The position numbers and the translations under genes were made by a program. From Pseudomonadota bacterium (GTDB taxonomy: Bacteria > Pseudomonadota > Alphaproteobacteria > Rhodobacterales > Rhodobacteraceae), in NCBI GenBank assembly GCA_039198225.1, contig JBCCTQ010000005.1, forward strand, positions 59,829 through 123,828: DNA of 64,000 nt. Reading direction: 5' to 3'. Every line of letters starts with the position of its first letter. The first letter of the stretch is position 1. This document shows positions 279 through 43,784 of the stretch, in pieces. Below the pieces are notes generated by a model. It had not been told where the DNA came from and did not search any database. It was given only the letters and a program-made list of their open reading frames with translations.

Positions 279-1328
279 ATGACTGTCCGCACTTTTATTT
301 CGGCCGCTGTAGCCAGCTTCGCCGTGACCACCGCCGCCGGTGCGCAAGAGAGCTTCGAGATGACCTCGGCATTCGGGAAAAACCTGCCGATCCTCGGCAC
401 TGCTGCTGTCGGTTTCACCGAAAAGATCAATGGGATTTCGAGCGACGTCGAATTCGAACATTTCGATCCCGGTGAACTCGTTCCGGCCCTCGAAGCGCTT
501 GACGCTGTTTCGAATGGCTCCGTCGACGCCGCCTACACGACAGCGGGCTACTGGCAGGGCAAGATCCCGGCCGCGTCGCTCTTCGCGGCCGTTCCTTTCG
601 GACCGGAAGCGGGCGAGTTCCTGGCTTGGATGCTCTACGATGACGGCGCTGAGCTCTTCCAGCGGATGTACGATGACAACGGCTTTAACGTCCATGTCGT
701 GCCTTGCGGCATCATCGCTCCGGAAACCTCCGGGTGGTTCAAGAACGAGATCAACTCGATTTCCGACCTCGAAGGGCTCAACATGCGTTTCTTCGGCCTC
801 GGTGCCGAAGTGATGCAAAAGCTCGGTGTCTCGACCTCGCTTCTTGCGGGCGGTGACATTTTCCCAGCCTTGGAGCGCGGCGCAATCGACGCGACCGAGT
901 TCTCAATGCCGCGGATCGATGCTCGCCTCGGGTTCCACAACATCGCGAAGTTTAACTACTTCCCAGGCTGGCACCAGCCTGCCACGATGTTCGAACTTCT
1001 GGTCAACAAAGACCGTTGGGACGACCTTGATGAGCGGAGCCAGCGTCAGATCGAGATCGCTTGCATGGCCAATATTACCGACAACTTTGCCGAAGGCGAA
1101 GCGACCAACTTCGAAGCGATGCAGGAGAACGTTGACCAAAACGGTGTGACCATCAAGCAATGGTCGCCTGAAATGCTTGAGGCTTTCGAAACCTCCTGGA
1201 ACGAAGTGGCAGCGGAACTTGCTTCGGAAGATGCCTTCTTCAAGGAAGTTTGGGATGATCTACAGGAATTCCGCGCTGGTTACGCGGTCTGGAACGAAAA
1301 CATCTACCTTCCGCGTCCGCGCAACTAA
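279..1328 (+). CDS. TRAP transporter substrate-binding protein (DctP family, COG4663-like)
   Basis: 349-aa ORF with a GAGGAG RBS upstream of ATG 279 and a signal peptide (FISAAVASFAVTTAAGAQE). The sequence has DctP-type solute-receptor character. DctQ- and DctM-like genes follow. Confidence 0.9.
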   Translation: MTVRTFISAAVASFAVTTAAGAQESFEMTSAFGKNLPILGTAAVGFTEKINGISSDVEFEHFDPGELVPALEALDAVSNGSVDAAYTTAGYWQGKIPAASLFAAVPFGPEAGEFLAWMLYDDGAELFQRMYDDNGFNVHVVPCGIIAPETSGWFKNEINSISDLEGLNMRFFGLGAEVMQKLGVSTSLLAGGDIFPALERGAIDATEFSMPRIDARLGFHNIAKFNYFPGWHQPATMFELLVNKDRWDDLDERSQRQIEIACMANITDNFAEGEATNFEAMQENVDQNGVTIKQWSPEMLEAFETSWNEVAAELASEDAFFKEVWDDLQEFRAGYAVWNENIYLPRPRN

Positions 1329-1464
1329 GGACGACCGGAACGATCCCAGAAAACACGGCCGGGGCGGATACATTCTTCGCCCCGGCTTCGTAATGAGTGC
1401 TGGAAGGGGCAGCCGGCCGTCGGTTTGAAGAGGGTCGATTTAAAAAACTGCGGGAGGGACACCC

Positions 1465-2307
1465 ATGGACAGCGACGACCCGACAAAGGAGGATACGGTC
1501 GCGGCCGTCACTGATCCGAGCGAAGTTGGGCGAGAGTTTCACAATGCTGGCGACCGTCTGACGATTACGGTCTCGAACCTCTTCGCCTGGTTCTTTCCGT
1601 TCTTGATGATGATCATTTGCGTGCAAGTGGTCCTTCGTACGCTAGGCCGCGCCGGTATTGGTCCTGGAAACCAAGCTTGGATGGACGATCTCCAATGGTG
1701 GCTCTATGGCGCCGCTGTCCTGATCGGAATTGGCTATGCTGTGACCACGAACAGCCATGTGCGCGTCGACATATTTTACGACAGTTTCCCGGAACGGAAA
1801 AAACGCCGGTTCGACATTTTTGCCCTCACTTGGCTCTTCTTGCCGTTCATCATCCTCTGTTGGGACGTCACCATACACTACGCTATCGCTTCCGTCGTTG
1901 CAGATGAAGGGTCGAGCAGTCCGAACGGCCTACACAACCTTTGGATTTTAAAGGTCTTTATGAATGTGAGCTTCATCGTTTTGGGCGTTGCGGCCTGGTC
2001 GGCTTATGTTCGGCTGCTTGCAGAGTTGACCGAACCTAAGCTGTGGCGAAAATTACTCTATGCGTTTCCGAGTACGATGTTTTTGGTCAACCTCGTCGTA
2101 TTTTATGCGATTTGGTGGGTGATATTCCTCACAAGCCCCGAAGGAACTCAAACGCGCGCCGTGGGTCGAAATGCGATATTCGATGAGTTCGAATTCGGGA
2201 ATTGGGAGATCAAGTACACGATCGCTATCACTCTCGTGGCGACGCTGCTCCTAATCGCGCTCGCTCGTGTATTAGACCGCAGCGCCGCGTCGCGTGGCAA
2301 TAAATAG
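1465..2307 (+). CDS. TRAP transporter small permease (DctQ-like, extended)
   Basis: 280-aa multi-TM ORF with a GGGAGGGA RBS, positioned between the SBP and DctM genes. Confidence 0.85.
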   Translation: MDSDDPTKEDTVAAVTDPSEVGREFHNAGDRLTITVSNLFAWFFPFLMMIICVQVVLRTLGRAGIGPGNQAWMDDLQWWLYGAAVLIGIGYAVTTNSHVRVDIFYDSFPERKKRRFDIFALTWLFLPFIILCWDVTIHYAIASVVADEGSSSPNGLHNLWILKVFMNVSFIVLGVAAWSAYVRLLAELTEPKLWRKLLYAFPSTMFLVNLVVFYAIWWVIFLTSPEGTQTRAVGRNAIFDEFEFGNWEIKYTIAITLVATLLLIALARVLDRSAASRGNK

Positions 2308-2319
2308 GGAACGGAACCG

Positions 2320-3762
2320 ATGTTGAGCTCTATCGGTCAGTTCCTGACCCTAAATGAACTCGCTGTATTAGCGATGTTTCTTGGTTTTATTTGGATGCTG
2401 TTCCGCGGCATTCCTGTCGCAATGGCCCTTGTGGGCATCAGCCTCGTATTTGTCCTGATCGCCGAGTTCTTCCTCGATCCGTTCAGAGGTGAATTGCGCG
2501 ACATTATCGAGTTTGACCGGACAGGAATCAACTACCAACGCCTCCAAGCTCTGTCAGCCAGACTATTTGGCAATATTGTGCAAAACCCGGTTTTGGTGGC
2601 TCTTCCGATGTTCATCTTTATGGGGCTCATGCTTGATCAGTCAGGTGTGGCCCAGCGGATGATGCACGCAATGCAGAAGCTATTTGGTGGCTTGCGTGGT
2701 GGCCTTTCGCTGACTGTTCTTTTGATTGGCATTATTCTCGCCGCCTCCACTGGGGTCATCGGCGCATCTGTGACACTGCTCGGCGTCATGGCGTTGCCTG
2801 CGATGATGAAGCAGGATTACTCAAAGCCGATTGCCACCGGCACGATTGCCTCTGCAGGAACGCTGGGGATTCTCATTCCTCCATCGATCATGCTTGTTAT
2901 CATGTCGGACCAATTGGCCATCAGTCTCGGCGATCTATTCATGGGAGCGCTGTTTCCGGGGTTGATCCTCGGTGGGCTTTATATCGTCTTTATCGTCATT
3001 TACGGCATTCTCTTTCCCGACGCGATGCCAGCGCCAGAACGTGCCGAGAACATTCGGTGGGCAGACGTAAGGGAAGTACTTTTGGCGGTGGTTCCGCCGA
3101 TGTTGTTGATTTTGTTGGTATTAGGTTCGATTTTCGCCGGCTATGCGACCCCAACCGAAGCGTCCGGCCTCGGAGCAATGGGGGCAACACTTTTAGCGTT
3201 GGGCAATCGGAAGCTCAATTGGCGCGTCCTACGTGATGTCAGCCGGTCTACACTGAACACATCAGGCTATATCGTTGGTATTTTCCTCGCTGCGAACTTC
3301 TTCGCCTTGGTTTTACGTCGGTATGGCGGAGACGAAATTGTTCAAAATCTCGTACTATCAGCCTTTGATGATCCATACATGACCGTGGCGTTCATTCTCT
3401 TCATTGTTTTTCTTCTCGGCTTTCTACTCGATTGGATCGAAATCACGATCATCATCATGCCACTGATGCTGCCCATCATCTTGGCCCTTGAATTGAGCAT
3501 TCCGGGTTTCGATCAGGTGCGTGATCCGTCCGTTGTTTGGTTTGCAATTCTGGTGGCGGTCACGCTCCAAACCTCGTTTCTTACGCCACCGGTTGGATTT
3601 GCGCTTTTCTATCTAAAAGGAGTGTGCCCCCCCGGGGTATCTTTGAAGCACATATATCAGGGCGTCGTCCCTTTTGTCTTTCTCCAACTCCTGGGCCTAT
3701 TCATCGTCTTCGAATTCCCGTCGTTGACAACGTGGCTTCCTTCCGTGGCTTACGGAGGCTAA
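2320..3762 (+). CDS. TRAP transporter large permease (DctM family)
   Basis: 480-aa polytopic membrane protein with typical DctM sequence. It starts 13 nt after the DctQ-like gene. Confidence 0.93.
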   Translation: MLSSIGQFLTLNELAVLAMFLGFIWMLFRGIPVAMALVGISLVFVLIAEFFLDPFRGELRDIIEFDRTGINYQRLQALSARLFGNIVQNPVLVALPMFIFMGLMLDQSGVAQRMMHAMQKLFGGLRGGLSLTVLLIGIILAASTGVIGASVTLLGVMALPAMMKQDYSKPIATGTIASAGTLGILIPPSIMLVIMSDQLAISLGDLFMGALFPGLILGGLYIVFIVIYGILFPDAMPAPERAENIRWADVREVLLAVVPPMLLILLVLGSIFAGYATPTEASGLGAMGATLLALGNRKLNWRVLRDVSRSTLNTSGYIVGIFLAANFFALVLRRYGGDEIVQNLVLSAFDDPYMTVAFILFIVFLLGFLLDWIEITIIIMPLMLPIILALELSIPGFDQVRDPSVVWFAILVAVTLQTSFLTPPVGFALFYLKGVCPPGVSLKHIYQGVVPFVFLQLLGLFIVFEFPSLTTWLPSVAYGG

Positions 3763-4149
3763 CGAGGGGTTGCTTTGGGACGAATTACTGATCGTAGTTA
3801 GGCAATGCCTGCTCGACCCTTGTTAGCAAGGCCTGCCTTTGACAATTCACTTCAGTGTCGACGCCGGGACCACATAGCCATAACAGGAACTGGCAGTGAA
3901 AGACGGTTTACAGCACCAGTAAGAAGCTAGAACTTGGCTTTCCAAACGATCAGGCGTCGTTCACAACTCCGATTTCGCTGCGCAAGCCGTCGCAATGGAT
4001 GAACTCGCTCAGGCCGCAGTCTGGGTATGGCAGCCTTCATCGAGCGGGATCCTCTCGCTCAGAATGAACACCGTGCCGACTGCCTCGAGGCTGAACTTCC
4101 CTAAAATTCTAGAGGGGCGTAAGCTCCTTGCGAGCCTGCTCGCGGGAGG

Positions 4150-4362
4150 TTAAGCTGTCGCGGGGTCAACCGTAAGCCCAACAGCCTCGGCGTACTTTAG
4201 CCACGTTTCAATTGAAGCTACGACGGCGCGAACTTCAATTGCGAGAAGCTCAATACCGACCAGCGATACGCGCACGAATGCATCAATCACGACACCCTTG
4301 TCGAGGATACGGTCAACGACCTCAGCGATAGAAGCAGATGCAACGCTTTTCTCAATAGCCAT
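4150..4362 (-). CDS. gvpA: Gas vesicle major structural protein GvpA
   Basis: Taking the internal ATG at 4362 (GGGAA RBS about 10 nt upstream) gives the 70-aa product [70 protein letters not shown]. It matches the canonical GvpA core ([38 protein letters not shown]) almost residue for residue. The track ORF starts 13 codons earlier at a GTG, which I consider unlikely. Confidence 0.93.
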
Positions 4363-4492
4363 TTCGTTATTCCCTATTTCCGAATTGTCCAAAACATCCA
4401 CCCGTCGGGTGCTCTCACTTTTACTAGCTGGATTTTCCTAAAGCTATGTTAAACAGACAAAAACGTTTCACGGCCTTCGCGAAAATGTGGCT

Positions 4493-5941
4493 TCAGCGAT
4501 CTGTCTCCGTGACTTCTGCATTATATGCAAAGAGTGCTAAAGTCTCCGCAATAGTCGCAAGAAAGTCGCGCAAAGGCTCGAGATCGGGTGTTTTGGTTGT
4601 CAAGGAGATCTGACAAGAGAGCGCCTCATTGGCCAATGCGAGGCTCTTTATCGCTGAAATCAATTCGGATAGGTTTCCGCTTGCGAATTCATTCGGTCCG
4701 GCGGCAACCTGCTCGTTGAACGTGCCTCTTGCGTGCTCATCTTCTTCGTATTGTGGATCATCTCTCCGAATCGTCGCTTCTTCGATCCGCCGGAGAACCA
4801 CACCGGCTGCCGTGTTAAACTGTGCGAAACTGCGGCGTTGTACCGTTAAATCCAGCACTGGATCCGGCCGTGCAGCAATCTCCGACACCATTGAACTGAG
4901 GTTTTCAAGCCTTTCGTAGAGCTCCGGTGATCCGCCATTCGAATATGGTTCGGACTGAGCCTTGATCGATTCTGTCTGCTTGGTTTGAAGGTCCAAAATT
5001 CGATCAACCGTTTCCTTTAATTCAGTGGTATTGGTCGGTGGCTCCAATTGGGACGCCTCATATCGATCGGCGATTCTATCCAGACGCTTGACTACATGTC
5101 CGATTGCTGTGCCGAAGCGTGAAAAAAACTGGCGTTGTTCGGTAAGATCTAGAACGGGGTCAGGTCGATCCATGAGGGCGGAAATAGAGGCGCTGAAATC
5201 CTCCAACACGGGTCGCAGAGCTGCTTCAACGGCCTGTTTGCAAATTGTATCAAGGTGCGTTGATCCGGGTTCTCCGTTAATTGCGGTTGGTCCTTTTTCC
5301 ACTTCCGTACTATCCAATCGGCACAACAATTCATTCACACGCGCTAAATCCAGACTTGGATCGGGCGCAGTATGTTCTGCGAGAACTGAGAGAAGTGTGT
5401 CCGAGAGGGCTTGCGTCGCCAGCATGTGACTGGCTTCGTTCGAAGCCTCAAGCCGGCGAACGATTTCTTCGATCCAATGCGGCGGTGTATCTGGACTGAT
5501 TTCGCTCTGTTCTTCCACTGCGTTAAATTCAACCAAGCGTGCCTCTAGCGCGTCCAGCCGCAAAGTAAGCGCTGCTTGTTGACCATCTGATAAAGATTGG
5601 TCCTGCTGACTGTGGCTTTGCTCAATCGCATCCAATCGTTGCATTGCCGCATTCAACTCGTCTCTTAGCTTGTCCATGGCAAGGTGCTGCGCTGACATGC
5701 TCTCGTTGATCTTAGTATGGTCTCCCGACATTTGTGAGGACGGGTATTCCTCAGAAGGAAATAGGTCAGTGCCCAAACAGTTTGGCGGATCGGAAGCGTT
5801 GGATGCGGCGCGCGCGGATTTGGTGTCTATGTCAGGACGTAAAATCTCGCCGCTCGTATTGCCGGCACTCTGCTCTTGGTCGATCAGTCTATGGCTCACG
5901 AAAAGTGCTGCTTTCTTAGGAGAGGCTTCGTTGGCAGTCAT
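4493..5941 (-). CDS. Hypothetical coiled-coil/repeat protein (about 482 aa); no family recognised
   Basis: Long ORF with protein-like composition and Q/E/L/R-rich helical segments. It contains internally repeated RPDPVLDLT.QR..F..F.TA.G.V..R motifs. The start is uncertain: ATG 5941 is preferred over ATG 5977. Confidence 0.6.
   Translation of the reverse strand: MTANEASPKKAALFVSHRLIDQEQSAGNTSGEILRPDIDTKSARAASNASDPPNCLGTDLFPSEEYPSSQMSGDHTKINESMSAQHLAMDKLRDELNAAMQRLDAIEQSHSQQDQSLSDGQQAALTLRLDALEARLVEFNAVEEQSEISPDTPPHWIEEIVRRLEASNEASHMLATQALSDTLLSVLAEHTAPDPSLDLARVNELLCRLDSTEVEKGPTAINGEPGSTHLDTICKQAVEAALRPVLEDFSASISALMDRPDPVLDLTEQRQFFSRFGTAIGHVVKRLDRIADRYEASQLEPPTNTTELKETVDRILDLQTKQTESIKAQSEPYSNGGSPELYERLENLSSMVSEIAARPDPVLDLTVQRRSFAQFNTAAGVVLRRIEEATIRRDDPQYEEDEHARGTFNEQVAAGPNEFASGNLSELISAIKSLALANEALSCQISLTTKTPDLEPLRDFLATIAETLALFAYNAEVTETDR
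4781..5167 (-). repeat. Intragenic protein-level repeat: two 30-aa motif copies 99 aa apart, plus a degenerate third copy at 5312-5368
   Basis: Copy 1 is RPDPVLDLTEQRQFFSRFGTAIGHVVKRLD (5078-5167). Copy 2 is RPDPVLDLTVQRRSFAQFNTAAGVVLRRIE (4781-4870). The degenerate copy is APDPSLDLARVNELLCRLD (5312-5368). Confidence 0.7.
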
Positions 5942-6049
5942 TCTCTTTACCCAAATAAATAGGCACGTTCGCGCCAAGAATGAGAAGTCGAGGCTTTGGC
6001 GTTGTTTATCCCTGCGGAATGGTGTCCGCCAAAAATTTAACGGACAACG

Positions 6050-7261
6050 CTACCAATCCTGAAGTTTACCAAGTGAAGTCGTGGGAGCAGACTTACCAAA
6101 GGTGAAGGCTTCGGGTCGGGCGGTTGCCGGTAGCTTAAGTGCAGTTCGACGTAGCCGATCCTCGAGATCGTTTGTGTAATCAGTCTTAGATACGATGAAC
6201 ACTTTGAGCCGCATTCCATCCCGCCGCGCAATCACGTCTTCGACTTCCTTGTCCACTCTTAGTGCATCCTCGACAATACCCAAGTCCACATTGGAGCCGG
6301 CGATTTGGATCACTCGGTCACGGCGACCAACAACCGAAAAAGAACGGCTATTAACCCAATCAAGTTTGTCTTCTGCATTGCAGGTTTTGCGTCCGTGCTG
6401 GCGACACAGTTTCAAATCTGTTTGGGTTATATTGCTAAAGAGGTTGAAAGTTGACTTGCTTGAATTCCGCCATCCTACCCCCCCGGTTTCCGTAGAACCG
6501 TATATATCGAAGAGTTCTGCAACGCCGGTTGCATTCGCAGCGTGCCAAGTGCTTGAGCAAGCGGGACCCCCCGACGAAACTCCAATTGTACGGTCCGGGA
6601 ATCGCAACCCAAACTCCGAGTACTTTCGCCATAGGTAGGGCGTTGCGAGTACTATGTCGCCATTACTACACATCCGAGAGATCGAGTTCGGCGCAACAAA
6701 GTGTTGATCCAGCACATCGATGCCAAGCCGCTTTGGTAAAAGGACGCTCCATACGAAGCCATACATATGATGAGGAGCCACGGCTGTAAGGACCCGGTTG
6801 GACCCCTTAATCGACGGTAGAGCATCGCAAATAGCGTCGATTTCTGCATCGAGATCCCTGCGTTCGTGGCTGATTTTCTTCTTCTCGCCAACTGTTCCGG
6901 AGGTCGAGAATGAAATTTTGGCCCCGCCAACTATACGTTCGAAGTGCATCGAAACGAGTCTGGCCCATTCATTGAGACTGCGATTGATAAAGAGATGATC
7001 CTCAATCCCAGTTGCCGAAAGTCCGAAATAATCGTTAAAGCAAAGGACGAGATCCATTAATCGAAGACTATCGATGTCCAGTTCGTTCTCTGAAATTTCT
7101 ACGTCACCCTCGGAGCCGTCCTCGTTGGAACCAAGGACCGACATAATATGGCCACTGCGACGCATTCGGTTCTTGCGAAGTAATTCGCTTTGAAAGTCGG
7201 CTATTAGAGAGATGCAGAGACGTCGGGCGTCCCTTGCGTCGATGAGTGGCGCGTTAGACAT
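6050..7261 (-). CDS. pcl: Adenylate-forming enzyme, probable p-coumarate-CoA ligase for PYP chromophore activation
   Basis: 403 aa with AMP-binding superfamily motifs: STSGTVGEKKKI (P-loop-like A3), DIYGSTETGGVG (A5), GRRDRVIQIAGSNV (A8), and a C-terminal LGKLQDW lysine motif. It is short, like the PYP-associated pCLs, and lies in the same tightly spaced operon as pyp. Confidence 0.8.
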   Translation of the reverse strand: MSNAPLIDARDARRLCISLIADFQSELLRKNRMRRSGHIMSVLGSNEDGSEGDVEISENELDIDSLRLMDLVLCFNDYFGLSATGIEDHLFINRSLNEWARLVSMHFERIVGGAKISFSTSGTVGEKKKISHERRDLDAEIDAICDALPSIKGSNRVLTAVAPHHMYGFVWSVLLPKRLGIDVLDQHFVAPNSISRMCSNGDIVLATPYLWRKYSEFGLRFPDRTIGVSSGGPACSSTWHAANATGVAELFDIYGSTETGGVGWRNSSKSTFNLFSNITQTDLKLCRQHGRKTCNAEDKLDWVNSRSFSVVGRRDRVIQIAGSNVDLGIVEDALRVDKEVEDVIARRDGMRLKVFIVSKTDYTNDLEDRLRRTALKLPATARPEAFTFGKSAPTTSLGKLQDW

Positions 7262-7273
7262 GGGGAGAGGGTC

Positions 7274-7756
7274 CTAGTTGAGATCCACTTCGCCAGATGC
7301 CATTTCCGCAAATAGCTCTCCGACAAGTCCGCTATAATGCGCGCGAGCCGTTTGTACTTCCGCCTTCAATGAGAGAGCCATGGACGCGATCTCTGCTGGA
7401 GATCCTTGTTCGATTTCCATTCCCGGTACCGTAAGGTCTTCCGAAGCATCATAGTTTTGGATGTAATTGAACGCTTCGTCGATGGTCTCGAAGCAATGGG
7501 ACTTGACGGTGTCGGTAAACTCTTCCGATACGTAGAACTTACGGATTGCAACCGCAAATCCGGTGTCAGTTTTGCGATACAAGTTGATTTCGTACCAATA
7601 GGATAGACCAGGCGTAAAGCTCATGGCCATGGCCAGTTCCGTGCCTTCAAATACGTTTGGGCGAGATCCGGGTTGTGGGAGGCGAAAGAAGGTCGCTGAC
7701 CCGACAAGAGGCAGCTCTGCACCCATTTGTTCTGCGGCATTCATTTGGTTTTGCAT
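7274..7756 (-). CDS. Hypothetical protein (160 aa), member of a local three-gene paralogue set
   Basis: ATG 7756 has an AAGGA RBS. It sits 15 nt after the upstream gene and 12 nt before pcl. It shares motifs with 7772-8335 and 9628-10119 (see findings). Confidence 0.6.
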   Translation of the reverse strand: MQNQMNAAEQMGAELPLVGSATFFRLPQPGSRPNVFEGTELAMAMSFTPGLSYWYEINLYRKTDTGFAVAIRKFYVSEEFTDTVKSHCFETIDEAFNYIQNYDASEDLTVPGMEIEQGSPAEIASMALSLKAEVQTARAHYSGLVGELFAEMASGEVDLN

Positions 7757-7771
7757 GTCTTGATCCTTGGC

Positions 7772-8335
7772 TCAGCCTACAAGTGTGTTGGATTGCATAT
7801 CGGACGATATCGAACCGTCACGTTCTGGGTTAGTTTGGTCGGAACCTTCCGCGTGGTAAGTGGAGCGACCGGGGCTTGCCTGAGACTGCGTTTGGACGTC
7901 TTTGGATTGGATAAAGGATTGAAACTCTAACTCGTTCGTAACCATTGACGCGCGATATTCTGGTCGTGCCACCGTGTTGCCTTTTGGCGCGTGAGCGAGC
8001 CCGATGAAAATGCGCCCATCTTCTGCGCAATAGACTTCAACACGCCGGCCAAGTTTGTTTGATCCTTGAAAACGATGAACGAAATCACTCTCATCGACCC
8101 AAACAAGTAATCCCCTAAATACAAGCGGATGTTGACCGTCTTGGCGTAGGACAACCTTTGGCCAACCTGAACTATCACCGGCTTCGAATAGGGCCAAACG
8201 GCTTTGTGTATTGTCCTTCGGGTCAATTGCCGCCGGCGTTGTGGATTCAGAGACTTGCACCCGCTGATCGTTCAGCAGGTGAAGGAGCTCAGGATGCACT
8301 GTGGCTTCAAAATGTACGTCAGGGCAGGAATACAC
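7772..8335 (-). CDS. Hypothetical protein (up to 187 aa), member of the local paralogue set; start uncertain
   Basis: The ORF begins 15 nt after the pyp stop. The first start is a GTG (8335) without a clear SD, and there is no internal ATG for about 130 codons. Shared motifs: PLVFRG, VEVYCAEDGRIFIGL, ELEFQSFIQSKD. Confidence 0.5.
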   Translation of the reverse strand: MYSCPDVHFEATVHPELLHLLNDQRVQVSESTTPAAIDPKDNTQSRLALFEAGDSSGWPKVVLRQDGQHPLVFRGLLVWVDESDFVHRFQGSNKLGRRVEVYCAEDGRIFIGLAHAPKGNTVARPEYRASMVTNELEFQSFIQSKDVQTQSQASPGRSTYHAEGSDQTNPERDGSISSDMQSNTLVG

Positions 8336-8350
8336 GGGCGATCTGCCAGT

Positions 8351-8725
8351 CTAGGCCCTTTTGACGAATAGCCAACAATGTTGGCCGTCAGGCTGCGATT
8401 TCAGATGGATTTTGACGCCGGCATTTGTTCCTTTGTAAGTGAACTTGTAGTCGAACATCACGTTGATTTGCCCGGTCGTGTGAAACTTTAGGAATTCGCC
8501 GTGAAAGCGCTTTCCCTTCGCGCATGGGGCGATCTCGTTGAAGAAATTCTTGCCCATCACGTCTTCGGGTGAGCGGCTCGAGATCATGCTTTCGGCTTTG
8601 TTGTATTTCACAATCGTGCCATTTCGGTCGAGCAGGATCGCTCCAAATGGGAGATACTCAGCGCGTTGCGGTTCGCGCGCGAGAATGTTGTCGACATCGT
8701 TGCTGCCGAAAGGAATAGTTTCCAT
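8351..8725 (-). CDS. pyp: Photoactive yellow protein (PYP), PAS-fold blue-light receptor
   Basis: 124 aa, collinear with Halorhodospira halophila PYP with a one-residue offset. Conserved stretches include FGS.D..N.LA, FGAI.LD..G.I..YN.AE, GKNFF..(V/I)APC and (W)(V/L)FVKR. Pocket residues Tyr41, Glu45, Ser49 (Thr50 in H. halophila), Arg51 and the chromophore Cys68 (codon 8522-8524) are present. There is an AAGGA RBS. Confidence 0.95.
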   Translation of the reverse strand: METIPFGSNDVDNILAREPQRAEYLPFGAILLDRNGTIVKYNKAESMISSRSPEDVMGKNFFNEIAPCAKGKRFHGEFLKFHTTGQINVMFDYKFTYKGTNAGVKIHLKSQPDGQHCWLFVKRA

Positions 8726-8769
8726 CGTGTTTTCCTTCTGTGCGCTTTAGATTGAGTGCGTGATGCGCT

Positions 8770-9204
8770 TTACTTGGTGTCGTTTGCCATATCGACACCA
8801 TCCTCGTTTTTGAGGAAGCTGTCGTTTTTGGTGAGGGACATGTCGACAATTCGGCGGATCGGAAAGCCATCATAATCTGACGTCAATTTATCTCGACCGT
8901 CAGCGGCGGTCCACTTATAGTCCATGCGACCCATTTGAACGACGCATTGGGGAATGATCTCGAAGCGCTCTTTCGCGGCAGATTCTTCTGCGAAGATATC
9001 CATCTCCGTTGCTTCTTCGAATTCCTGGAGGGTCTTCAACTCGTCAATTTTACTATCGCTCTCATTCTTGGCGGTCGTCGCCAGAATTTCATATGCGGCG
9101 AGGAGGACCCACTCTGGATGATCGCCCCGCACCACAAGGCTCATTTCGGGACATCGGAATTCGTACCGCCCGTCGGCTTCAGACAATTGGCCTAGATTTT
9201 GCAT
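8770..9204 (-). CDS. Hypothetical protein (144 aa), first gene of the pyp operon
   Basis: The internal ATG 9204 with an AAAGGAA RBS is preferred over GTG 9234. The gene ends 44 nt upstream of pyp. No family recognised. Confidence 0.55.
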   Translation of the reverse strand: MQNLGQLSEADGRYEFRCPEMSLVVRGDHPEWVLLAAYEILATTAKNESDSKIDELKTLQEFEEATEMDIFAEESAAKERFEIIPQCVVQMGRMDYKWTAADGRDKLTSDYDGFPIRRIVDMSLTKNDSFLKNEDGVDMANDTK

Positions 9205-9368
9205 CCGGATGACGTTCCTTTCGGCTGGAGACACTTTAAAACCGCATCGGTTCCGGCTTGCTGGGGAATAGGTTCGAAAACGTCAAAATTCAGTTTACGG
9301 TGTCGTGATCCCTTGCTTTGTCCTGCCGGGTTGATACTGTTCAGTGGTGTGGGATTAGGGGTAACGAG

Positions 9369-9521
9369 ATGTCGTCTTGGGTAGAACTGCGTGTCGAGAA
9401 CGAGTTTGAGGGCGTTCTGATTTATGCTTTTGAGCGGCCAACAGACGCGGCCGAGATGATTGAATTCCTATCAAGCTTTTGGCCGAAGGCGCGTTTTATT
9501 GTCGAACCTCTCCGACATTGA
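9369..9521 (+). CDS. Possible small protein (50 aa) in the divergent control region
   Basis: ATG 9369 is preceded by AGGGG. The product is MSSWVELRVENEFEGVLIYAFERPTDAAEMIEFLSSFWPKARFIVEPLRH. It is short and has no recognised homology. Confidence 0.25.
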   Translation: MSSWVELRVENEFEGVLIYAFERPTDAAEMIEFLSSFWPKARFIVEPLRH

Positions 9522-9627
9522 CTGGCGTAATCAACGCCGCTGCAGAAATGCGACTGAGGATGTAGCGGTCGTTTGGCGTGGCTCTCCGTTAACTTTGGCG
9601 TAAGCATTAAACTGATAAACGCGAGGG

Positions 9628-10119
9628 ATGATGCATCCCAGCGTTACCACGGCCCAGGAGGCTTTGAGCGCTTCTGGCGATGCTACACCGTCTGCGGCTT
9701 GGTCGCTCACGCTCTTACCTCGCAGTGGTGCACCTCCGCTGCGATTTTTCGGCAGAGAAGTCTTCAAAGAAACAACAGGCGGTTTGAGCGAGCCGCTCAT
9801 TGTGGGCCTTTGGGCGAAGCGCAAGGCGGGGTACGTGCTGCAGCATTCCGCGATTGAAGCGGAGCCGCGGTCACATGTGACGGTCAGCGTTGACGATCTG
9901 TCGACGGCGATGTTTGCGCTCGAAGACTATTGCTCGACCCTTGCTGCGGGGCGGGATGCCGCCTTTGAGTTCGAGGGGCCGGACCTCGATGTGGCCCTGA
10001 ACAGATCGCTGGACGCCCAAGTCAGACGCAGCCGAACCAACGCTTTTCTTACCCTTGCCGGTCATGCCCTTGCCATGTGGGACACATGGCTTGCGGATGA
10101 GGCCGATGACCGAAACTAG
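9628..10119 (+). CDS. Hypothetical protein (163 aa), member of the local paralogue set
   Basis: Transcribed divergently from the pyp operon. Shared motifs: PLRFFG, GLSEPLIVGLWAKRKAGYVL, AMFALEDYC. Its stop overlaps the RBS of the next gene. Confidence 0.55.
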   Translation: MMHPSVTTAQEALSASGDATPSAAWSLTLLPRSGAPPLRFFGREVFKETTGGLSEPLIVGLWAKRKAGYVLQHSAIEAEPRSHVTVSVDDLSTAMFALEDYCSTLAAGRDAAFEFEGPDLDVALNRSLDAQVRRSRTNAFLTLAGHALAMWDTWLADEADDRN

Positions 10120-10129
10120 GAGATCCTGA

Positions 10130-10843
10130 ATGTCGAGCTCTTCGTTGCAGTCCAGCAGTGCCATCCGAATGGAAGCGCGCCAACATTTGCGCAAGCTTCG
10201 CCAAGCGCGGCTTCAGTCAAAGATTGCTCGAACCCCAGGGCCTCCAACTGAGGAAAATACACAGTCGGTGCCTTTGGTTGGCGGTGAGGTGCCGATTGAG
10301 GAACACGACGCACATGCGGCCAACGAAGCCATTGAGCCCCGTGTGGAAGAAACGTTCGCGTCGCAACGTGCCGGAAGCGTATTCATACAATTACAGGCTG
10401 ACGAGGTGCCGGAAAGCGAGGGAAAGTCTACGGATCAGTCCGTAGAAGATATGCCTTCGGAAAAGCCCAGCGCCGGTGCCTCGGAAGAGCTTGAAAGTGA
10501 TCCTTCGGCCGTTTTTTTGGACGAACCCGGTGACACAGACGTAGCTGATGCCGAGCGTACCGACAGTGGCGAGGAAACTGAAAAGAATTCGGTAGAGCAC
10601 TCAGAGGCGCCATCGAAGGAAGTGGCAATTAGTATTCGAGAGCCCGGAGAATCCGAGCTCTTTGCGCTGCCAGGATCGGGCCCAGGATTGGTATGGATGC
10701 TGGAAAAGAGCGGCATCTCAGACCTGAAAGCCCTTGCTGAGGCTGACGTCGAAAAGCTTCGAACGGATCTGGGGCTAATCGCCAAGATCCTCGACGTCGA
10801 TTATTGGATCGAGTTTGCGAGGAAGTCTCAAGAAGAGGCCTAG
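10130..10843 (+). CDS. Acidic low-complexity protein with a C-terminal helix-hairpin-helix-like domain (237 aa)
   Basis: A TAGGAG RBS overlaps the upstream stop. About 170 aa are E/D/S/P-rich, followed by LFALPGSGPGLVWMLEKSGISDLKALAEADVEKLRTDLGLIAKILDVDYWIEFA, which has an HhH-type LPG.GP pattern. Confidence 0.6.
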   Translation: MSSSSLQSSSAIRMEARQHLRKLRQARLQSKIARTPGPPTEENTQSVPLVGGEVPIEEHDAHAANEAIEPRVEETFASQRAGSVFIQLQADEVPESEGKSTDQSVEDMPSEKPSAGASEELESDPSAVFLDEPGDTDVADAERTDSGEETEKNSVEHSEAPSKEVAISIREPGESELFALPGSGPGLVWMLEKSGISDLKALAEADVEKLRTDLGLIAKILDVDYWIEFARKSQEEA

Positions 10844-10981
10844 TCCACCCTGCGCCGAACTACATGGGAAAAGGCCCAGGAGGGCGCTTTGATGGATCTG
10901 AACCGTCTATGCACCAGCCCCTTTCCCTGAGATGCGCGCCGGATGAAGGCAAGGATGCCGGGTTCGTTTAAGACCCGTTGT

Positions 10982-11656
10982 CTAAAGCGCGGCTTGAGCT
11001 TCGGCCGCGGTGCCAAAGCGGGGAAGGTTGGCGGCGGATTTTCCGTGGGCTGCCATCAACGCATCGCGGACAAATGCGATGTGAGCTGTCTCTTCGATGA
11101 TCTCCGCAAGGTATTGCGCAGCCATAATGGTCTTGCCCACGCCAATCGTGCCGTGATTGGCAAGGACCGCTGCGCGAACATCTAGCGCGCGAAAAACGGG
11201 GCTGATCTCGCGTTCCGTTTGCGGCCCGCCATTGCCAGACAGGGGGATCAGGGGCATCCGTCCGATTTTCTCGACGGTTTGAACCGTGAGGCATGGGATC
11301 TCCAGGCCGGCGCTCGCGTATCCCGTTGCCCACGGGCTGTGGCAATGGACAATCGCATTGATATCTTCACGGATTCGGTAGAGGTCGAGGTGGAAGTCGA
11401 GGTCTTTTGATGGCTTGAGGCCTTCGGCGCCCCGGAGGATTGAGCCAGACAGATCGACGACCTGAAGATTGTCGCGGCTACATTCAGCGAAACCCACGCC
11501 CGACGGTTTGATCACAATTGCGTCGCGAGCATCGAGCCTAACTGAGAGGTTGCCACCCGCATTGGTCTGGAGCCCCAGATCGAAACAGCGTCGGGCCGCG
11601 GCAATGAGGTCGTCCATCTTGTCGTAAATGTCGGGAAAGCGGGATGTATCAGGCAT
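10982..11656 (-). CDS. Class II aldolase/adducin-family protein
   Basis: 224 aa with GGNLSVR, IKPSG and a metal-binding HCHSP region typical of FucA/AraD-like class II aldolases. It overlaps the upstream gene by 8 nt. Confidence 0.88.
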   Translation of the reverse strand: MPDTSRFPDIYDKMDDLIAAARRCFDLGLQTNAGGNLSVRLDARDAIVIKPSGVGFAECSRDNLQVVDLSGSILRGAEGLKPSKDLDFHLDLYRIREDINAIVHCHSPWATGYASAGLEIPCLTVQTVEKIGRMPLIPLSGNGGPQTEREISPVFRALDVRAAVLANHGTIGVGKTIMAAQYLAEIIEETAHIAFVRDALMAAHGKSAANLPRFGTAAEAQAAL

Positions 11657-12779
11657 TTGGCATCCTTTCGAACAGGGCGATGACGGCGGCCTCGGCCGTC
11701 GCTTTTTCGTTAATGTGGTGGTCGAGCCGTTGGACCGTAAAGGAGCGCGCCTCCGCTTCGAGGATGTCCGCGGTTATGTCGCGCAAAACCGGAGCCTCGA
11801 TTGCTCCGCCCGGTCGATCCTCGCTGCTAAACCCACCCATTGGAATCAATACGTGGCAGGGGGCGATGGAATGGTTGAGTTCGGCAGCGAGCGCATGGGC
11901 TTGGCTTTCCATTTCGGCTTCAGTCAAAACCACATGGGTGAAGTGTCTCGCATGGGCATAGTGAGGACGGGCGCGATAGGCGTCCGACACCGTGTGCCGA
12001 GCTCCGAATCCAATGAAATTAAGACCCCCGGGGAGCACGACCCGAGGGAGCGCGTCGGCCACCCGAAAACGATCAGGCATCGGTACGTGGTCGCCAGCCA
12101 GTCGAAGGCGGCCAAGTTCGTGGACATTGAGGTCGATGACAGCCGCGGCGTGGCCTTCGGCAACAAATCGCGAGAATGCCGCACCGCCAAAGCCATTGGC
12201 ATGAAAGACAGTTGCGTCGAGCCCCTTATCCGCGAGCGCTTCCGCCACGGCCGCGCCCGCCGCATTGGTTGTGCCCAATGTGGTGACAGCGACGTTCGCC
12301 CGGTCGCCATGGGCAACCGTCGAGGCCTGGGCCAATCCGCCCACCATGGCCGCAGTGTTCTCAAAAACCTGGCTGAGCATCGGGTTCAAACCTTGGAGAT
12401 CGCAGAGCGTGGGCACCAATGTAATCGCGGTGTCGGCAAGTGCTGCGCGTGGGTCGAAGGCCAATGTCGTGACAAGAAACTTGGGAAACGTCGCCGGGAG
12501 CGCCTTCAATGTGTCAAGCGCGATCTCTCCCCCGGTTCCACCGCCGAGCCCGATTGCGGCTAGGGCTTGGTCGCCATGCTGGGCCACTTCCTGCGCGCCG
12601 GCCGAGACGACCTCGGCCATTCGGGCCATTTTGGCCTCACTTGTGAGGACGACGCCTCTCGCATCGAGTGACGTGTCGACCACGACCGGCTCGAGCCCGT
12701 GGCGCTCAAGCGCAGCGACCAATTCTTGTATTTCTGCCGATTTGGTCTCCACCGTCCCGATCACGAGGACGCGTTTCAT
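11649..12779 (-). CDS. UPF0261 (Tm-1-like ATP-binding domain) family protein
   Basis: 376 aa. The N-terminus MKRVLVIGTVETKSAEIQEL and the overall pattern resemble UPF0261 proteins. Confidence 0.75.
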   Translation of the reverse strand: MKRVLVIGTVETKSAEIQELVAALERHGLEPVVVDTSLDARGVVLTSEAKMARMAEVVSAGAQEVAQHGDQALAAIGLGGGTGGEIALDTLKALPATFPKFLVTTLAFDPRAALADTAITLVPTLCDLQGLNPMLSQVFENTAAMVGGLAQASTVAHGDRANVAVTTLGTTNAAGAAVAEALADKGLDATVFHANGFGGAAFSRFVAEGHAAAVIDLNVHELGRLRLAGDHVPMPDRFRVADALPRVVLPGGLNFIGFGARHTVSDAYRARPHYAHARHFTHVVLTEAEMESQAHALAAELNHSIAPCHVLIPMGGFSSEDRPGGAIEAPVLRDITADILEAEARSFTVQRLDHHINEKATAEAAVIALFERMPNA

Positions 12780-43200: not shown

Positions 43201-43784
43201 GCATCGTAGACCCGATAGATCGCCGAAAGGTCCTTTGCCGCGCCAAAATCCGGCAGCGTCGCTATCCCGTTGGCTGAAATTGGGACTACTGAAACGATGC
43301 GGCCGGTCCGATTATTGATGACCCGGATTTCTCCCCGTGTCGTAAAGGCAGGGTAGTTGATCCGGCTTTGGACGCGATTGTTGCCGTCACCCAGAAACTC
43401 GAAATCCAACCGTGGGTCAGCGTTGAGGCCGTCGAAGGTGACGCGAATATCGGCATCATAGAGTGCCAGATCGGTCATCCGGATCTGGTCTTCCAATCCG
43501 GGGTCGGCATCGATGGGGCGTCCATCGATGGCAAGTACGAAACCCTCGGAATTGGCGATCGGCGCCGTTTCGGGCTCTGCGTTTCGGCCACTAGGCATTT
43601 CGACGACGCTCGTCGCATTGGCGTCGATGCAAGTGTCGGGAAGGACGTCGTAGTCAAAACCGCATTGGATTATTTGCGAATACACATAGGAAGGCATTGC
43701 GACGGCAATCGCGCTTGTCGAGGCAAATAGGAAGCCGTGGAACGGGCGCCATTGACGATTTATGCGCATTGTTACCCGTCTCAT
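40275..43784 (-). CDS. Large outer-membrane-type protein (1169 aa): signal peptide, carboxypeptidase-regulatory-like Ig domain, very long beta-rich region
   Basis: The N-terminus is FLFASTSAIAVAMPSYVYSQ. The segment VRVLGETVTTDPDGNFAIRRILPPGTHDVDV has a CarboxypepD_reg-like pattern. Hundreds of residues show alternating Y/G/D/N/T-rich strand patterns. The C-terminus ...INLIAKF ends in Phe, as in an OMP beta-signal. ATGA overlap with the giant gene. Confidence 0.7.
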   Translation of the reverse strand: MRRVTMRINRQWRPFHGFLFASTSAIAVAMPSYVYSQIIQCGFDYDVLPDTCIDANATSVVEMPSGRNAEPETAPIANSEGFVLAIDGRPIDADPGLEDQIRMTDLALYDADIRVTFDGLNADPRLDFEFLGDGNNRVQSRINYPAFTTRGEIRVINNRTGRIVSVVPISANGIATLPDFGAAKDLSAIYRVYDARGRYDETHPVRLDRSDDRGLAPNVEEGTDNTARRRIPIRGGAVTVSSNNALGTSTVRVLGETVTTDPDGNFAIRRILPPGTHDVDVTVSGFGNGAFTRRVDIPSSEWFYIGIADVTVGWRDNAPEGVESYYQTGRLVFTVDGVTASGVRITISADTREQPLSDLFRDIDRKDANSLAERIDPETGYQIFGDDSTLEDRTPTSGNLYARIEKDNNFILWGDFQGRLAGNSFLRNERTLYGAQVEWNSERQTGEGEPGSRLQLHAAQPDTLAGRDVFRGTGGSVYFLRNQDINIGSETVTVEIRDQITDRVVDRTVLQPGRDYTINYIQGTVLLTSPLSASAGTDSLVTTLPGGDESVNLVVNYEYTPTTGDVNGMNLGLRAEHWTTDRLRFGVSAARETTGTADQTSYGADIRHRIGEGGFLQLDYARSDGPGFGSSFSNDGGLIIDTSAANAGTGNALRAELYATFEDLGYQGDGELSFYAERRSEGFSSPDYSVTAATGAERLWGFTLEHNTSERLGWRIYHDDYANAVGEHDRETGAEIDYRLSERVQLAFGVEVVDRLRGTEDGSRTDLASRVTWLPRDGLEVYAFGQDTVSNSGLEDNARIGVGGSADINENWTLEAEVSDGALGFGARALAEYRATDNSSLYFGYELDPDPLVSGSQASEGRFISGGRRPINDQVEIFGENTYDLFGSGNSLTSAYGATYRPTQYTTYEFAYEGGRIDDETNGDFNRNAFSFGWTHQNDVLTLRTRAEYRTESGILDTAPRDADTVLLSFDSRYKFSEQARLQASLKYVDTQSDETSFVNGELFDARLGYAFRPIDNDRLNLLFQYRYLDDMIGQVVDGSEERAPQISQILSADATYEVNDHWTLGGKFGVRFAETAPDSTTPLTENNATLAVLNARYHLVHKWDILAEARLLDSDQAGRETGILGAAYRHFGNNVKLGAGYNFGQFSDDLTDITLDDKGPFINLIAKF

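Follow-up and report, generated by a model that had tools for sequence, protein, structure and literature searches.

We found that the gene island at 4150-10843 of the window (the whole 64 kb stretch of DNA analyzed) is probably, at a likelihood of roughly 60%, a pared-down version of an alphaproteobacterial supercluster that sets a photoactive yellow protein (PYP) photoreceptor module among gas-vesicle genes, the module passing light information on to buoyancy. The supercluster, which joins a PYP light sensor to gas-vesicle genes, is widespread in Alphaproteobacteria. Buoyancy control by PYP has been proposed since Kyndt et al. 2004 (see also Vollmers et al. 2013, PMC3646047); the conserved parts of the locus that are neither pyp nor gvp are still uncharacterized and supply concrete candidates for PYP output. 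The features of the island are as follows:

4150..4362, minus strand: gvpA, major gas vesicle structural protein (70 aa; PF00741, NF006874)
4493..5941, minus strand: orphan acidic repeat protein with coiled-coil-like stretches (482 aa; NCBI AAF871_03920)
6050..7261, minus strand: pcl, PYP-type p-coumarate-CoA ligase (TIGR02372, PF00501)
7274..7756, minus strand: paralogue B, PYP-linked small-protein family (160 aa; tblastn, profile search)
7772..8335, minus strand: paralogue A, same family as B and C (187 aa from GTG 8335; hhalign)
8351..8725, minus strand: pyp, photoactive yellow protein (124 aa; TIGR02373)
8770..9204, minus strand: D, likely PBP orthologue (144 aa from ATG 9204; NCBI AAF871_03945)
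9205..9368, no strand: divergent intergenic region separating the D-pyp and E-C-HhH operons (from gene coordinates)
9369..9521, plus strand: E, conserved 50-aa protein (NCBI AAF871_03950)
9628..10119, plus strand: paralogue C, A/B/C family (163 aa; hhalign)
10130..10843, plus strand: HhH protein (237 aa; C-terminal helix-hairpin-helix domain)

Every ORF that a sequence-only reading of this DNA had listed was present, and its minus-strand gaps of 44, 15, 15, and 12 nt were reproduced from the coordinates; on the plus strand, 10 nt separate the C and HhH genes (10119/10130). That reading counted seven uncharacterized ORFs and listed six; a seventh, which it missed, is the 50-aa gene E at 9369-9521. 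Both divergent promoters are presumed to lie in 9205-9368, where scans for sigma-70 promoters and terminators gave nothing above chance and no operator was identified. NCBI calls a shorter start for paralogue A (175 aa). The gvpA frame stays open as far as a GTG at 4401, and the gene most likely starts at the ATG at 4362, as in the NCBI call.

Profile searches confirmed pyp, pcl, and gvpA, and matched the conserved neighbors to no known family save for the C-terminal helix-hairpin-helix domain of 10130-10843. The product of 8351-8725 scored 180 bits against TIGR02373 (cutoff 143), matched solved PYP structures at E 5e-33, and was 76% identical to the PYP of R. capsulatus (Rc-PYP), 81% to that of C. 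sphaeroides, and just 44% to that of H. halophila. Like Rc-PYP, it carries a Gly (Gly99) where H. halophila PYP has Met100. The chromophore pocket is kept, as had been claimed: Y41, E45, S49, R51, and C68 align to H. halophila Y42, E46, T50, R52, and C69; the position of Ser49 is Ala in Rc-PYP. The pcl product matched TIGR02372 over its full length at E 1e-92, with 310.7 bits falling just below the cutoff of 334.7; its PF00501 match reached 30.5 bits against 29.9, and the adenylation motifs TSGTVGEKK and YGSTETGG and a C-terminal GK are readable in its translation. No tyrosine ammonia-lyase (TAL) gene was found within the 64 kb window.

To place the island, we compared 80 genome-derived pyp loci (L001-L080), 54 alphaproteobacterial and 26 from other groups, among which L001-L037 are 37 loci from Rhodobacterales, Caulobacterales, and Parvularculaceae; all co-occurrence counts are raw, with related genomes counted as independent. 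pcl adjoined pyp in 76/80. Apart from that of the repeat protein, every island gene keeps its position and sequence across dozens of other genomes and is thus more than a chance ORF, and the co-operonic neighbors proved to be strongly and conservedly linked to pyp. In Gammaproteobacteria, the H. halophila-type pyp-pcl(-tal) operon shares the single-domain PYP with its Tyr/Glu/Cys pocket, followed by pcl. In contrast, the 26 non-alphaproteobacterial loci, this type included, lack D, A/B/C, E, the HhH protein, and gvp genes.

The neighbors, for which no family had been recognized, are not all unrelated to one another: profile-profile comparison places A, B, and C as paralogues in a single small family that is undescribed. 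Using groups defined by gene position, hhalign gave probabilities of 97.7% for A vs B (E 2e-12), 97.3% for A vs C (E 2e-11), and 98.6% for B vs C (E 7e-16), with D as a control below 1% against each. A profile search of 1.84e9 representative proteins returned about 303 family clusters at 50% identity, and those checked carried no Pfam domain. The family is present in 53/54 alphaproteobacterial pyp loci and in 0/26 of the others. Conversely, every one of the 24 metagenome loci recruited through B that reached far enough upstream carries pyp, so that these 24 informative loci include no case of the family without pyp. Within the loci, A was placed between pyp and B in 32/37 of L001-L037, C occupied the divergent position in 30, and tblastn found B in 52/80, always immediately upstream of pcl.

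The position of B invites another explanation, namely that the conserved neighbors, B in particular, help Rhodobacter-type PYP to mature or handle its chromophore instead of serving as signaling output. Their task would be to pass p-coumaroyl from pCL to Cys68, to stabilize apo-PYP, or to set the pUV/pBL equilibrium. B lies 12 nt from pcl in the window and abuts or overlaps it in many loci, it is the sole paralogue kept in the minimal, gvp-less D-pyp-B-pcl loci L028 and L081, and the A/B/C family is as narrow in range as the Rhodobacter-type PYP clade. We nevertheless consider this rather unlikely. Gammaproteobacterial and other PYPs have pcl, yet none of the 26 non-alphaproteobacterial loci carries the family, which is therefore not generally required for holo-PYP; moreover, the number of paralogues follows the presence of gvp genes, not pcl. 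H. halophila holo-PYP was reportedly produced in E. coli, by Kyndt and colleagues in 2003, using TAL and pCL alone.

Under the signaling reading, D is a candidate partner of PYP. It had been stated that the partner of stand-alone PYP was never identified, but this is outdated: a PYP-binding protein (PBP, RCAP_rcc01067) of R. capsulatus, encoded next to Rc-PYP (RCAP_rcc01066), was reported in 2021 (Kim, Nakasone, Takakado, Yamazaki, Kamikubo, and Terazima 2021; bioRxiv 10.1101/2021.06.01.446672, later PCCP 2021). According to that work, Rc-PYP is a photochromic UV-A/blue switch. In its long-lived UV-induced state it joins dimers of PBP, the acidic protein encoded beside it (142 aa, 16 kDa, eps280 1.55e4), in a PYP2-PBP4 complex, which blue light breaks up again. 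D is likely the orthologue or counterpart of PBP, a homology that rests on synteny and physical properties. It lies directly upstream of pyp, on the side away from pcl, in 37/37 of L001-L037, and its family is acidic and typically 141-146 aa long, with many members having 2 Trp and 3 Tyr (eps280 15470). The published size, acidity, and eps280 of PBP fit D and misfit A, B, and C. In R. capsulatus SB1003, rcc01067 is on the TAL side of pyp, the position held by D, and rcc01067-01071 lead to rcc01072 hutH (TAL) and then rcc01073 gvpA. The relatives L122 and L124 have the order TAL, HhH, C, E, D, pyp, A, B, pcl, and R. capsulatus shows this order too in the neighborhood table of Xing et al. 2022, where the conserved positions are left nameless ("None"); the main text of that paper does not bring up gas vesicles. 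The window thus resembles the R. capsulatus locus in PYP type, in the gene for an acidic protein of ~142-144 aa that adjoins pyp, and in the two unnamed genes between pyp and pcl, with further unnamed genes on the other side (followed, in R. capsulatus, by TAL and gvpA); it differs in lacking TAL and nearby accessory gvp genes, and in having gvpA downstream of pcl with the orphan 482-aa gene in between. By analogy with R. capsulatus PBP, D is the only neighbor in the window with a reported PYP interaction behind it.

Next to the PYP module, the ORF at 4150-4401 encodes a GvpA (60 bits to PF00741; 121 bits to NF006874, cutoff 100). The gene had been described as solitary, and tblastn with 11 gvp-cluster proteins indeed found no other gvp gene in the 64 kb window. 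The sequence-only reading also named a pyp/gas-vesicle adjacency in R. capsulatus, which is real and spread far wider: gvp genes lie within 10 kb in about 43/54 alphaproteobacterial pyp loci, from several orders, vs 0/26 from other groups. This extends the association from R. capsulatus SB1003 and Loktanella sp. SE-62, in which pyp is embedded in a gas vesicle cluster (Vollmers et al. 2013); as in those clusters, pyp and pcl of the window adjoin a gvp gene, although only gvpA is retained. The arrangement varies, with the gvp cluster directly after pcl in L021 and a gvpA-HhH-gvpN operon headed by TAL in L045-type loci. The papers covered here give no description of the conserved genes that are neither gvp nor pyp.

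The composition of the loci follows gvp genes. Among 32 loci with full flanks, 28 have gvp genes, and of these 24 have three paralogues and 23 the HhH protein; the four without gvp genes, together with L081, have one or two paralogues and no HhH protein, so that in full-flank loci both traits occur only where gvp genes are present. The HhH family, found in 37/54 alphaproteobacterial pyp loci, has a basic helix at the N terminus, an acidic, repetitive, disordered linker, and a C-terminal domain for which several members hit HHH_5 or DUF4332 (best E 2e-5). Its gene directly follows gvpA in Sphingomonadales-like and Acetobacteraceae loci. These features would also suit A, C, E, and the HhH protein helping to form or assemble the gas vesicle in this lineage, for example as a GvpC-like outer protein; they would then play no role in light signaling, and their proximity to pyp would reflect only the location of pyp inside the gvp cluster. 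We regard this as quite unlikely. D, A/B/C, and E had no match in two pyp-less gvp clusters, those from Octadecabacter arcticus and Methylocella tundrae, where the HhH family gave one weak, non-significant match (E 0.003). Furthermore, A and C are paralogues of B, which stays with pyp even without gvp genes, and A, C, E, and the HhH protein persist in the window with no accessory gvp gene beside them. The light-to-buoyancy reading has a limit of its own: loci with the D-pyp-B-pcl core can lack gvp genes within 10 kb (L028, L081) or in the 4.7 kb available downstream (L011), so gas vesicles cannot be the sole output.

The reduced state of the window copy raises a further explanation, that of a decaying or horizontally acquired remnant doing nothing coherent, with accessory gvp genes and TAL lost and an orphan ORF inserted. 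Only gvpA is left, TAL is absent, and G+C is 0.51-0.53 over 2-10 kb vs 0.58-0.62 in the rest of the window. The rcc01067-01074 region is wholly missing from R. capsulatus strain 37b4, which shows that strains can do without the island and differ in having it. As an orphan, the 482-aa gene forms a cluster of its own among about 15 billion proteins, with no match in Pfam, NCBIfam, or PDB searches and no homologue in the 80 pyp loci. Its ORF extends to a TTG at 5977 (494 aa), and the repetitiveness noted earlier was borne out by an internal repeat of about 55 aa (residues ~257-312 and ~356-411; local alignment score 122 vs 37 +/- 6 for shuffles, maximum 61). Because it is conserved nowhere else, this protein is unlikely to be core machinery. 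We nonetheless judge a remnant very unlikely, since all ten island genes are intact ORFs of conserved length. The window GvpA falls in a 90%-identity cluster of 126 sequences, including those of Roseivivax, Sulfitobacter, Yoonia, and Kangsaoukella; it is at least 90% identical to the GvpA of relatives with full gvp clusters, and the window copy looks functional. The divergent MAG locus L006 (PYP 85%, D 60% identical) likewise has one short ORF between pcl and gvpA and unrelated genes after gvpA, suggesting that the layout it shares with the window is a stable arrangement. The same gene order was recovered in an independent assembly of run SRR22824307, presumably from the same source sample.

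Under the light-to-buoyancy reading, family assignments and published work indicate that pCL would activate p-coumarate, which PYP would bind at Cys68. As a Rhodobacter-type PYP (Gly for Met100), a type that is UV-A/blue photochromic in R. capsulatus, the window protein may behave likewise, and light would govern its capture and release of D. The steps downstream of PYP-PBP we infer from gene context: the D signal may be relayed through A, B, C, E, and the HhH protein, with B as a putative core partner, A and C as a possible gas-vesicle-specific pair, and the HhH protein possibly acting on DNA, on GvpA, or directly on the vesicle. Cells would then make or assemble their GvpA-based gas vesicles, and so adjust their buoyancy, in step with the UV/blue light field. 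With TAL and accessory gvp genes missing from the window, this output may be lost or altered in this organism; if the system is still functional, those genes must sit elsewhere in the genome. The earlier proposal that the co-operonic neighbors are candidates for PYP output thus gains a conserved linkage to pyp and a likely PBP counterpart in D, and probably loses the 494-aa protein.

Predicted structures of D (AF2 pLDDT 86) and B (AF2 pLDDT 87) had no PDB match, and because the folds match nothing solved they give no clue to activity. B is modeled as a five-stranded sheet with a long C-terminal helix. In its antiparallel sheet followed by a helix, the model weakly resembles the beta-beta-beta-beta-alpha nucleic-acid-binding repeats of the Pur-alpha/Whirly type; among small domains, Foldseek ranked Borrelia Pur-alpha first (probability 0.87, target TM 0.53), but this match is not significant (E-value 0.18, TM 0.29 on the query), and sequence similarity is absent. 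E homologues occupy the same position in 16 loci, with one more elsewhere in its locus (L032), and share the pattern VELRV..GE.IL.Y.F...EA.EM..FL..FFP.A.F.IQPLRH; gene callers also predict E, at 47 aa, in L122, L124, and L125.

Rhodobacter-type PYP, in the window and in ~50 relatives, is invariably accompanied by a defined set of small proteins without annotation, and the size of this set tracks the presence of gas-vesicle genes. The set comprises a probable counterpart of PBP (the PYP-binding protein RCAP_rcc01067 of R. capsulatus), one to three paralogues of a pyp-only family, a micro-protein, and a predicted helix-hairpin-helix (HhH) protein. The window copy occupies an island at 4150-10843.

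Genes of the island, with strand and annotation
10130-10843, plus strand: HhH protein, sub-threshold HhH score
9628-10119, plus strand: C, no Pfam/NCBIfam match
9369-9521, plus strand: E, 50 aa, called by NCBI and absent from the sequence-only reading's list
8770-9234, minus strand: D, from the ORF listing, with an ATG at 9204
8351-8725, minus strand: pyp, TIGR02373
7772-8335, minus strand: A, no Pfam/NCBIfam match
7274-7756, minus strand: B, no Pfam/NCBIfam match
6050-7261, minus strand: pcl (PYP-type 4-coumarate-CoA ligase), TIGR02372
4493-5977, minus strand: repeat-protein ORF, no Pfam/NCBIfam match
4150-4401, minus strand: gvpA, NF006874 / PF00741

All the ORF positions of the sequence-only reading were confirmed, with minus-strand gaps of 44, 15, 15 and 12 nt and the plus-strand pair (9628-10119 and 10130-10843) lying 10 nt apart; its gene list was incomplete, however, having missed the 50-aa gene at 9369-9521. 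In the NCBI annotation of the same 151.8 kb MAG contig (tags AAF871_03920-03960), GvpA starts at the ATG at 4362 and is 70 aa long, and the repeat protein is 482 aa. The gene order was identical in an independent assembly of run SRR22824307, presumably from the same source sample. No family had been recognized for the unknown ORFs from the sequence, and Pfam and NCBIfam were likewise empty for D, A, B, C, E and the repeat protein. Scans for sigma promoters and terminators across 3700-11100 gave matches not above shuffled expectation and therefore no evidence on operon boundaries. A blastn search of 4000-11000 against a plasmid collection matched only gvpA/gvpJ, and a known plasmid segment was ruled out.

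The identities of PYP, pCL and GvpA rest on family assignment by curated models. The window PYP scored 180.2 bits against TIGR02373 (cutoff 143.05; aligned residues 2-124 of 124) and matched PYP chains in the PDB at E 5e-33. The chromophore pocket described from the sequence was upheld: Y41, E45, S49, R51 and C68 line up with Y42, E46, T50, R52 and C69 of the H. halophila protein, so that the Cys69 thioester site, Tyr42 and Glu46 are matched and S49 stands in for T50. The window pCL, which NCBI labels a hypothetical protein, scored 310.7 bits against TIGR02372, below the equivalog cutoff of 334.7; the match was nonetheless full length (8-401 against 4-386 of 386) at E 1e-92, and we therefore take the protein for an outlying member of this family and not for some other enzyme. 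It also scored 30.5 bits against PF00501 (threshold 29.9), and the adenylate-forming motifs TSGTVGEKK, YGSTETGG and a C-terminal GK are readable in its translation. GvpA scored 121.3 bits against NF006874 (cutoff 100) and 60 bits against PF00741 (cutoff 25), and it shares a 90% cluster with the annotated GvpA of several Rhodobacterales.

To follow the neighbors of pyp across genomes, we used a PYP alignment to search GTDB representative genomes, one for each species. This yielded 80 pyp loci (54 alphaproteobacterial and 26 other), each taken with flanks of up to 10 kb, and we searched their six-frame ORFs by tblastn and iterative HMM searches. D lay directly upstream of pyp in 37/37 loci of Rhodobacterales, Caulobacterales and Parvularculaceae. 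Relatives of B occurred in 52 of the 80 loci, including those of Sphingomonadales, Acetobacteraceae and Azospirillaceae, and a homologous pcl lay near pyp in 76. On these counts, the conserved linkage that the sequence-only reading had proposed checking therefore holds within the Alphaproteobacteria only; the 26 loci outside (Gammaproteobacteria, Desulfobacteraceae and spirochaete) carried pyp-pcl alone, some with tyrosine ammonia-lyase (TAL). The minimal loci L028 and L081 read D-pyp-B-pcl. One reading of the conserved neighbors is that they are maturation factors, and this is partly contradicted.

A, B and C fell into one family in jackhmmer searches, with three copies in 40/54 alphaproteobacterial loci. 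We checked this paralogy by building a separate alignment for each gene position and comparing the alignments by hhalign, which gave 97.7% for A versus B (E 2e-12), 97.3% for A versus C (E 2e-11) and 98.6% for B versus C (E 7e-16); the negative control, D against A, B or C, stayed below 1% each time. Searched against 1.84 billion representative proteins, the B profile retrieved just 303 clusters at E ≤ 1e-3, almost all of them 140-200 aa long, and no Pfam domain was found in ten longer A/B/C members. Three members of 300-409 aa (P0338, P0340 and P0466) have two matched stretches each and no Pfam domain, suggesting that they may be tandem fusions of two paralogues. In the reverse direction, we located 37 metagenome contigs via B-specific peptide patterns. 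The pyp gene was present in all 24 contigs that extend far enough upstream, and in the remaining 13, B starts within 750 nt of the contig end; therefore, no case of A/B/C without pyp was found among the 37 contigs.

We then compared the neighbors with PBP, a dimeric protein of 142 aa, 16 kDa, pI 3.9 and ε280 1.55e4 (bioRxiv 10.1101/2021.06.01.446672), whose gene, RCAP_rcc01067, adjoins pyp (rcc01066) in R. capsulatus (Kim et al., bioRxiv 10.1101/2021.06.01.446672; PCCP 2021). In a UV-A-induced, long-lived state, Rc-PYP binds PBP to form a PYP2-PBP4 complex, which comes apart under blue light; the long lifetime was partly attributed to a Gly replacing Met100 (bioRxiv 10.1101/2021.06.01.446672). 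The window PYP is 76% identical to Rc-PYP and has the same Gly at the H. halophila Met100 position. In strain SB1003, rcc01067-01071 are unnamed, rcc01072 is hutH (TAL) and rcc01073 is gvpA (PMC10218006 Table S1), and the table of Xing et al. gives the R. capsulatus neighborhood as gvpK, pcl, None, None, PYP, None, None, None, aromatic amino acid lyase. In the nearest relatives of the window, gvpK-TAL is followed by HhH, C and E on the other strand and, after these, by D-pyp-A-B-pcl, and D adjoins pyp on the side away from pcl in every locus that has D. Taken together, these three orders therefore place rcc01067 in the position of D.

The physical properties point the same way. The window D has 144 aa, pI 4.5, two Trp and four Tyr; members of its family are acidic, typically of 141-146 aa and ~16 kDa, and many have two Trp and three Tyr (ε280 15470). 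The lowest pI seen among them was ~4.3, the published value for PBP being lower still, and A, B and C do not fit the size, acidity and ε280 of PBP. D is thus very probably the PBP orthologue, judged by position and physical properties, with R. capsulatus itself outside the 80 loci, the 104 D homologues and the 120 listed PYP homologues compared. Since PBP was reported as a partner of Rc-PYP in 2021, the statement in the sequence-only reading that no partner of stand-alone PYP had been identified is out of date. The window locus belongs to the R. capsulatus type of pyp/PBP/gvp arrangement. In Sphingomonadales-like loci (L038-L047), a 125-aa ORF is conserved after pyp, in the place of D; it was unrelated to D, A, B and C by hhalign and was rejected as a PBP counterpart there.

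Profile and structure searches had also been suggested from the sequence, and for D and B they gave confident AlphaFold2 models, built with family alignments, but no relatives in the PDB. The D model (pLDDT 86) runs from three short strands through a pair of long helices (30-61 and 67-81) to a hairpin; in the B model (pLDDT 87), an antiparallel sheet of five strands (22-89) is joined by short helices and a C-terminal helix of 35 residues. Foldseek against the PDB returned nothing at E ≤ 1e-3 for either model, profile searches of D and B against PDB sequences found no match, and the best small-domain match of B, Pur-alpha, was not significant. As to function, the predicted folds are uninformative. 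In the HhH protein, a basic N-terminal helix and a C-terminal domain of ~60 aa are conserved, and the acidic linker varies. The window copy reached 14 bits against the Pfam HhH model (threshold 27, E 0.07); with this C-terminal domain, 4/25 members of the family matched HHH_5 (best E 2e-5) and two matched DUF4332.

Next, we considered the link to gas vesicles. An adjacency of pyp and gvp genes had earlier been noted only for R. capsulatus, which the sequence-only reading also named, and Loktanella sp. SE-62. A buoyancy role for PYP has already been proposed in the literature. In the 2022 survey of PYP neighborhoods (Xing et al.), the term "gas vesicle" occurs 14 times in the data table and is absent from the text. 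We observed gvp-family genes within 10 kb of pyp in 43/54 alphaproteobacterial loci versus 0/26 others, several of the 11 alphaproteobacterial loci without them being contigs broken off short. In Sulfitobacter sp. JB4-11 (L021), the D-pyp-A-B-pcl run is directly followed by gvpN, gvpO, a GvpA/J protein, hsp20, gvpF, gvpG, a Cdc48-like AAA ATPase and further gvpF/L. Sphingomonadales-like loci have a gvpA-HhH-gvpN operon with TAL as its first gene, divergent from pyp (in L045, TAL at 8021-9748 and gvpA at 7641-7859, both on the minus strand; likewise in L038-L047).

Among the 32 alphaproteobacterial loci with at least 8 kb on both sides, three paralogues were present in 24 of the 28 gvp-bearing loci and the HhH protein in 23; the HhH protein was absent from the four loci without gvp genes and from L081, each of which had one or two paralogues (Fisher p ~1e-3, uncorrected for phylogeny). 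These patterns suggest a core layer of PYP, pCL and B, plus D in Rhodobacterales and relatives, and a gas-vesicle-associated layer of A, C and the HhH protein, with E sharing the operon of C and the HhH protein. The conserved neighbors might instead be pure gas-vesicle accessory proteins. This reading is partly contradicted by the gvp clusters of Octadecabacter arcticus and Methylocella tundrae, neither of which has pyp, where D, A/B/C, E and the HhH protein had no significant match. Because the unknown proteins are missing from these two clusters, we rejected them as general gas-vesicle accessories.

The window copy is a reduced version of this arrangement. A tblastn search with 11 gvp-cluster proteins from Sulfitobacter sp. 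JB4-11 matched only gvpA in the 64 kb, bearing out the solitary gvpA of the sequence-only reading; the window thus holds neither a complete gvp set (gvpN, F/L, G, J, K and O beside gvpA) nor TAL. The gvpA gene lies downstream of pcl, with the orphan acidic 482-aa protein between. This protein has a significant internal repeat of ~55 aa, is the sole member of its own protein cluster, and had no homologue in the 80 loci; phmmer matched it to none of the locus ORFs, not even to the 138-aa ORF that takes its position in L006. That locus, from a second, divergent MAG, has the same reduced layout of pcl, a short unrelated ORF, a 70-aa gvpA and unrelated genes. The window copy could be a decaying remnant, which is partly contradicted: since its GvpA is at least 90% identical to that of relatives with full gvp clusters, and no member of the gvp-type set (A, B, C, D, E and the HhH protein) is missing, the accessory gvp genes more likely lie elsewhere in the genome than have been lost.

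G+C is 0.51-0.53 across 2000-10000, against 0.58-0.62 in most of the window. R. capsulatus strain 37b4 has no homologue of rcc01067-01074, from PBP through hutH and gvpA (PMC10218006 Table S1), so the island differs among strains of a single species. Both the low G+C and the absence from 37b4 fit a mobile, dispensable island. The low-G+C stretch also spans adjacent TRAP transporter genes at 279-3762. On the other side, the island is bordered by a class II aldolase-like gene and the next gene (10982-12779, minus strand), whose counterparts border the HhH gene of Yoonia sp. F2084L (L025, 6210-8000); the pairs are 79% and 47% identical, suggesting that the two share their insertion context there.

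Although textbooks have featured PYP as a photoreceptor for over 30 years, PBP in R. capsulatus is, to our knowledge, the sole partner reported for the single-domain protein. We reasoned that D would play the PBP role in the window lineage, that the paralogues A/B/C, E and the HhH protein would relay or execute the PYP output, and that this output may be gas-vesicle formation; the PYP-PBP binding step itself is published for R. capsulatus (bioRxiv 10.1101/2021.06.01.446672). We give roughly one chance in three to A, B, C, E and the HhH protein forming, together with PBP, an undescribed signaling/assembly pathway from the UV-A/blue state of PYP to gas-vesicle formation. If so, it would be the first complete output pathway for single-domain PYP, with protein folds that have no solved relatives. 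The small, strictly PYP-linked set of uncharacterized proteins makes an old question directly testable and narrows the search for the PYP output to five named, clonable candidates; R. capsulatus SB1003, Sulfitobacter sp. JB4-11, Roseivivax and Yoonia, which are culturable and carry full clusters, are at hand for buoyancy assays. A photochromic switch between UV-A and blue light whose partners are defined would also be useful in optogenetics.

We also noted genes of other kinds near pyp. In Roseivivax isoporae (L001, 12553-17080), a soluble multi-PAS protein with an MCP signaling domain and a triple-CheW-domain protein lie between pcl and gvpN, and in R. capsulatus the mcpH-like rcc01075 lies two genes beyond gvpA (PMC10218006 Table S1), hinting at a chemotaxis-type branch in some pyp-gvp clusters. 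Elsewhere in the window, a 2527-aa ORF (43781-51364, minus strand) has adhesin-type repeats (five DUF7933, DUF7507, DUF6923, DUF11, a CshA repeat, SdrD_B and Big_9) and is directly followed by a 1169-aa ORF (40275-43784, minus strand) with no Pfam match at E ≤ 1e-5.
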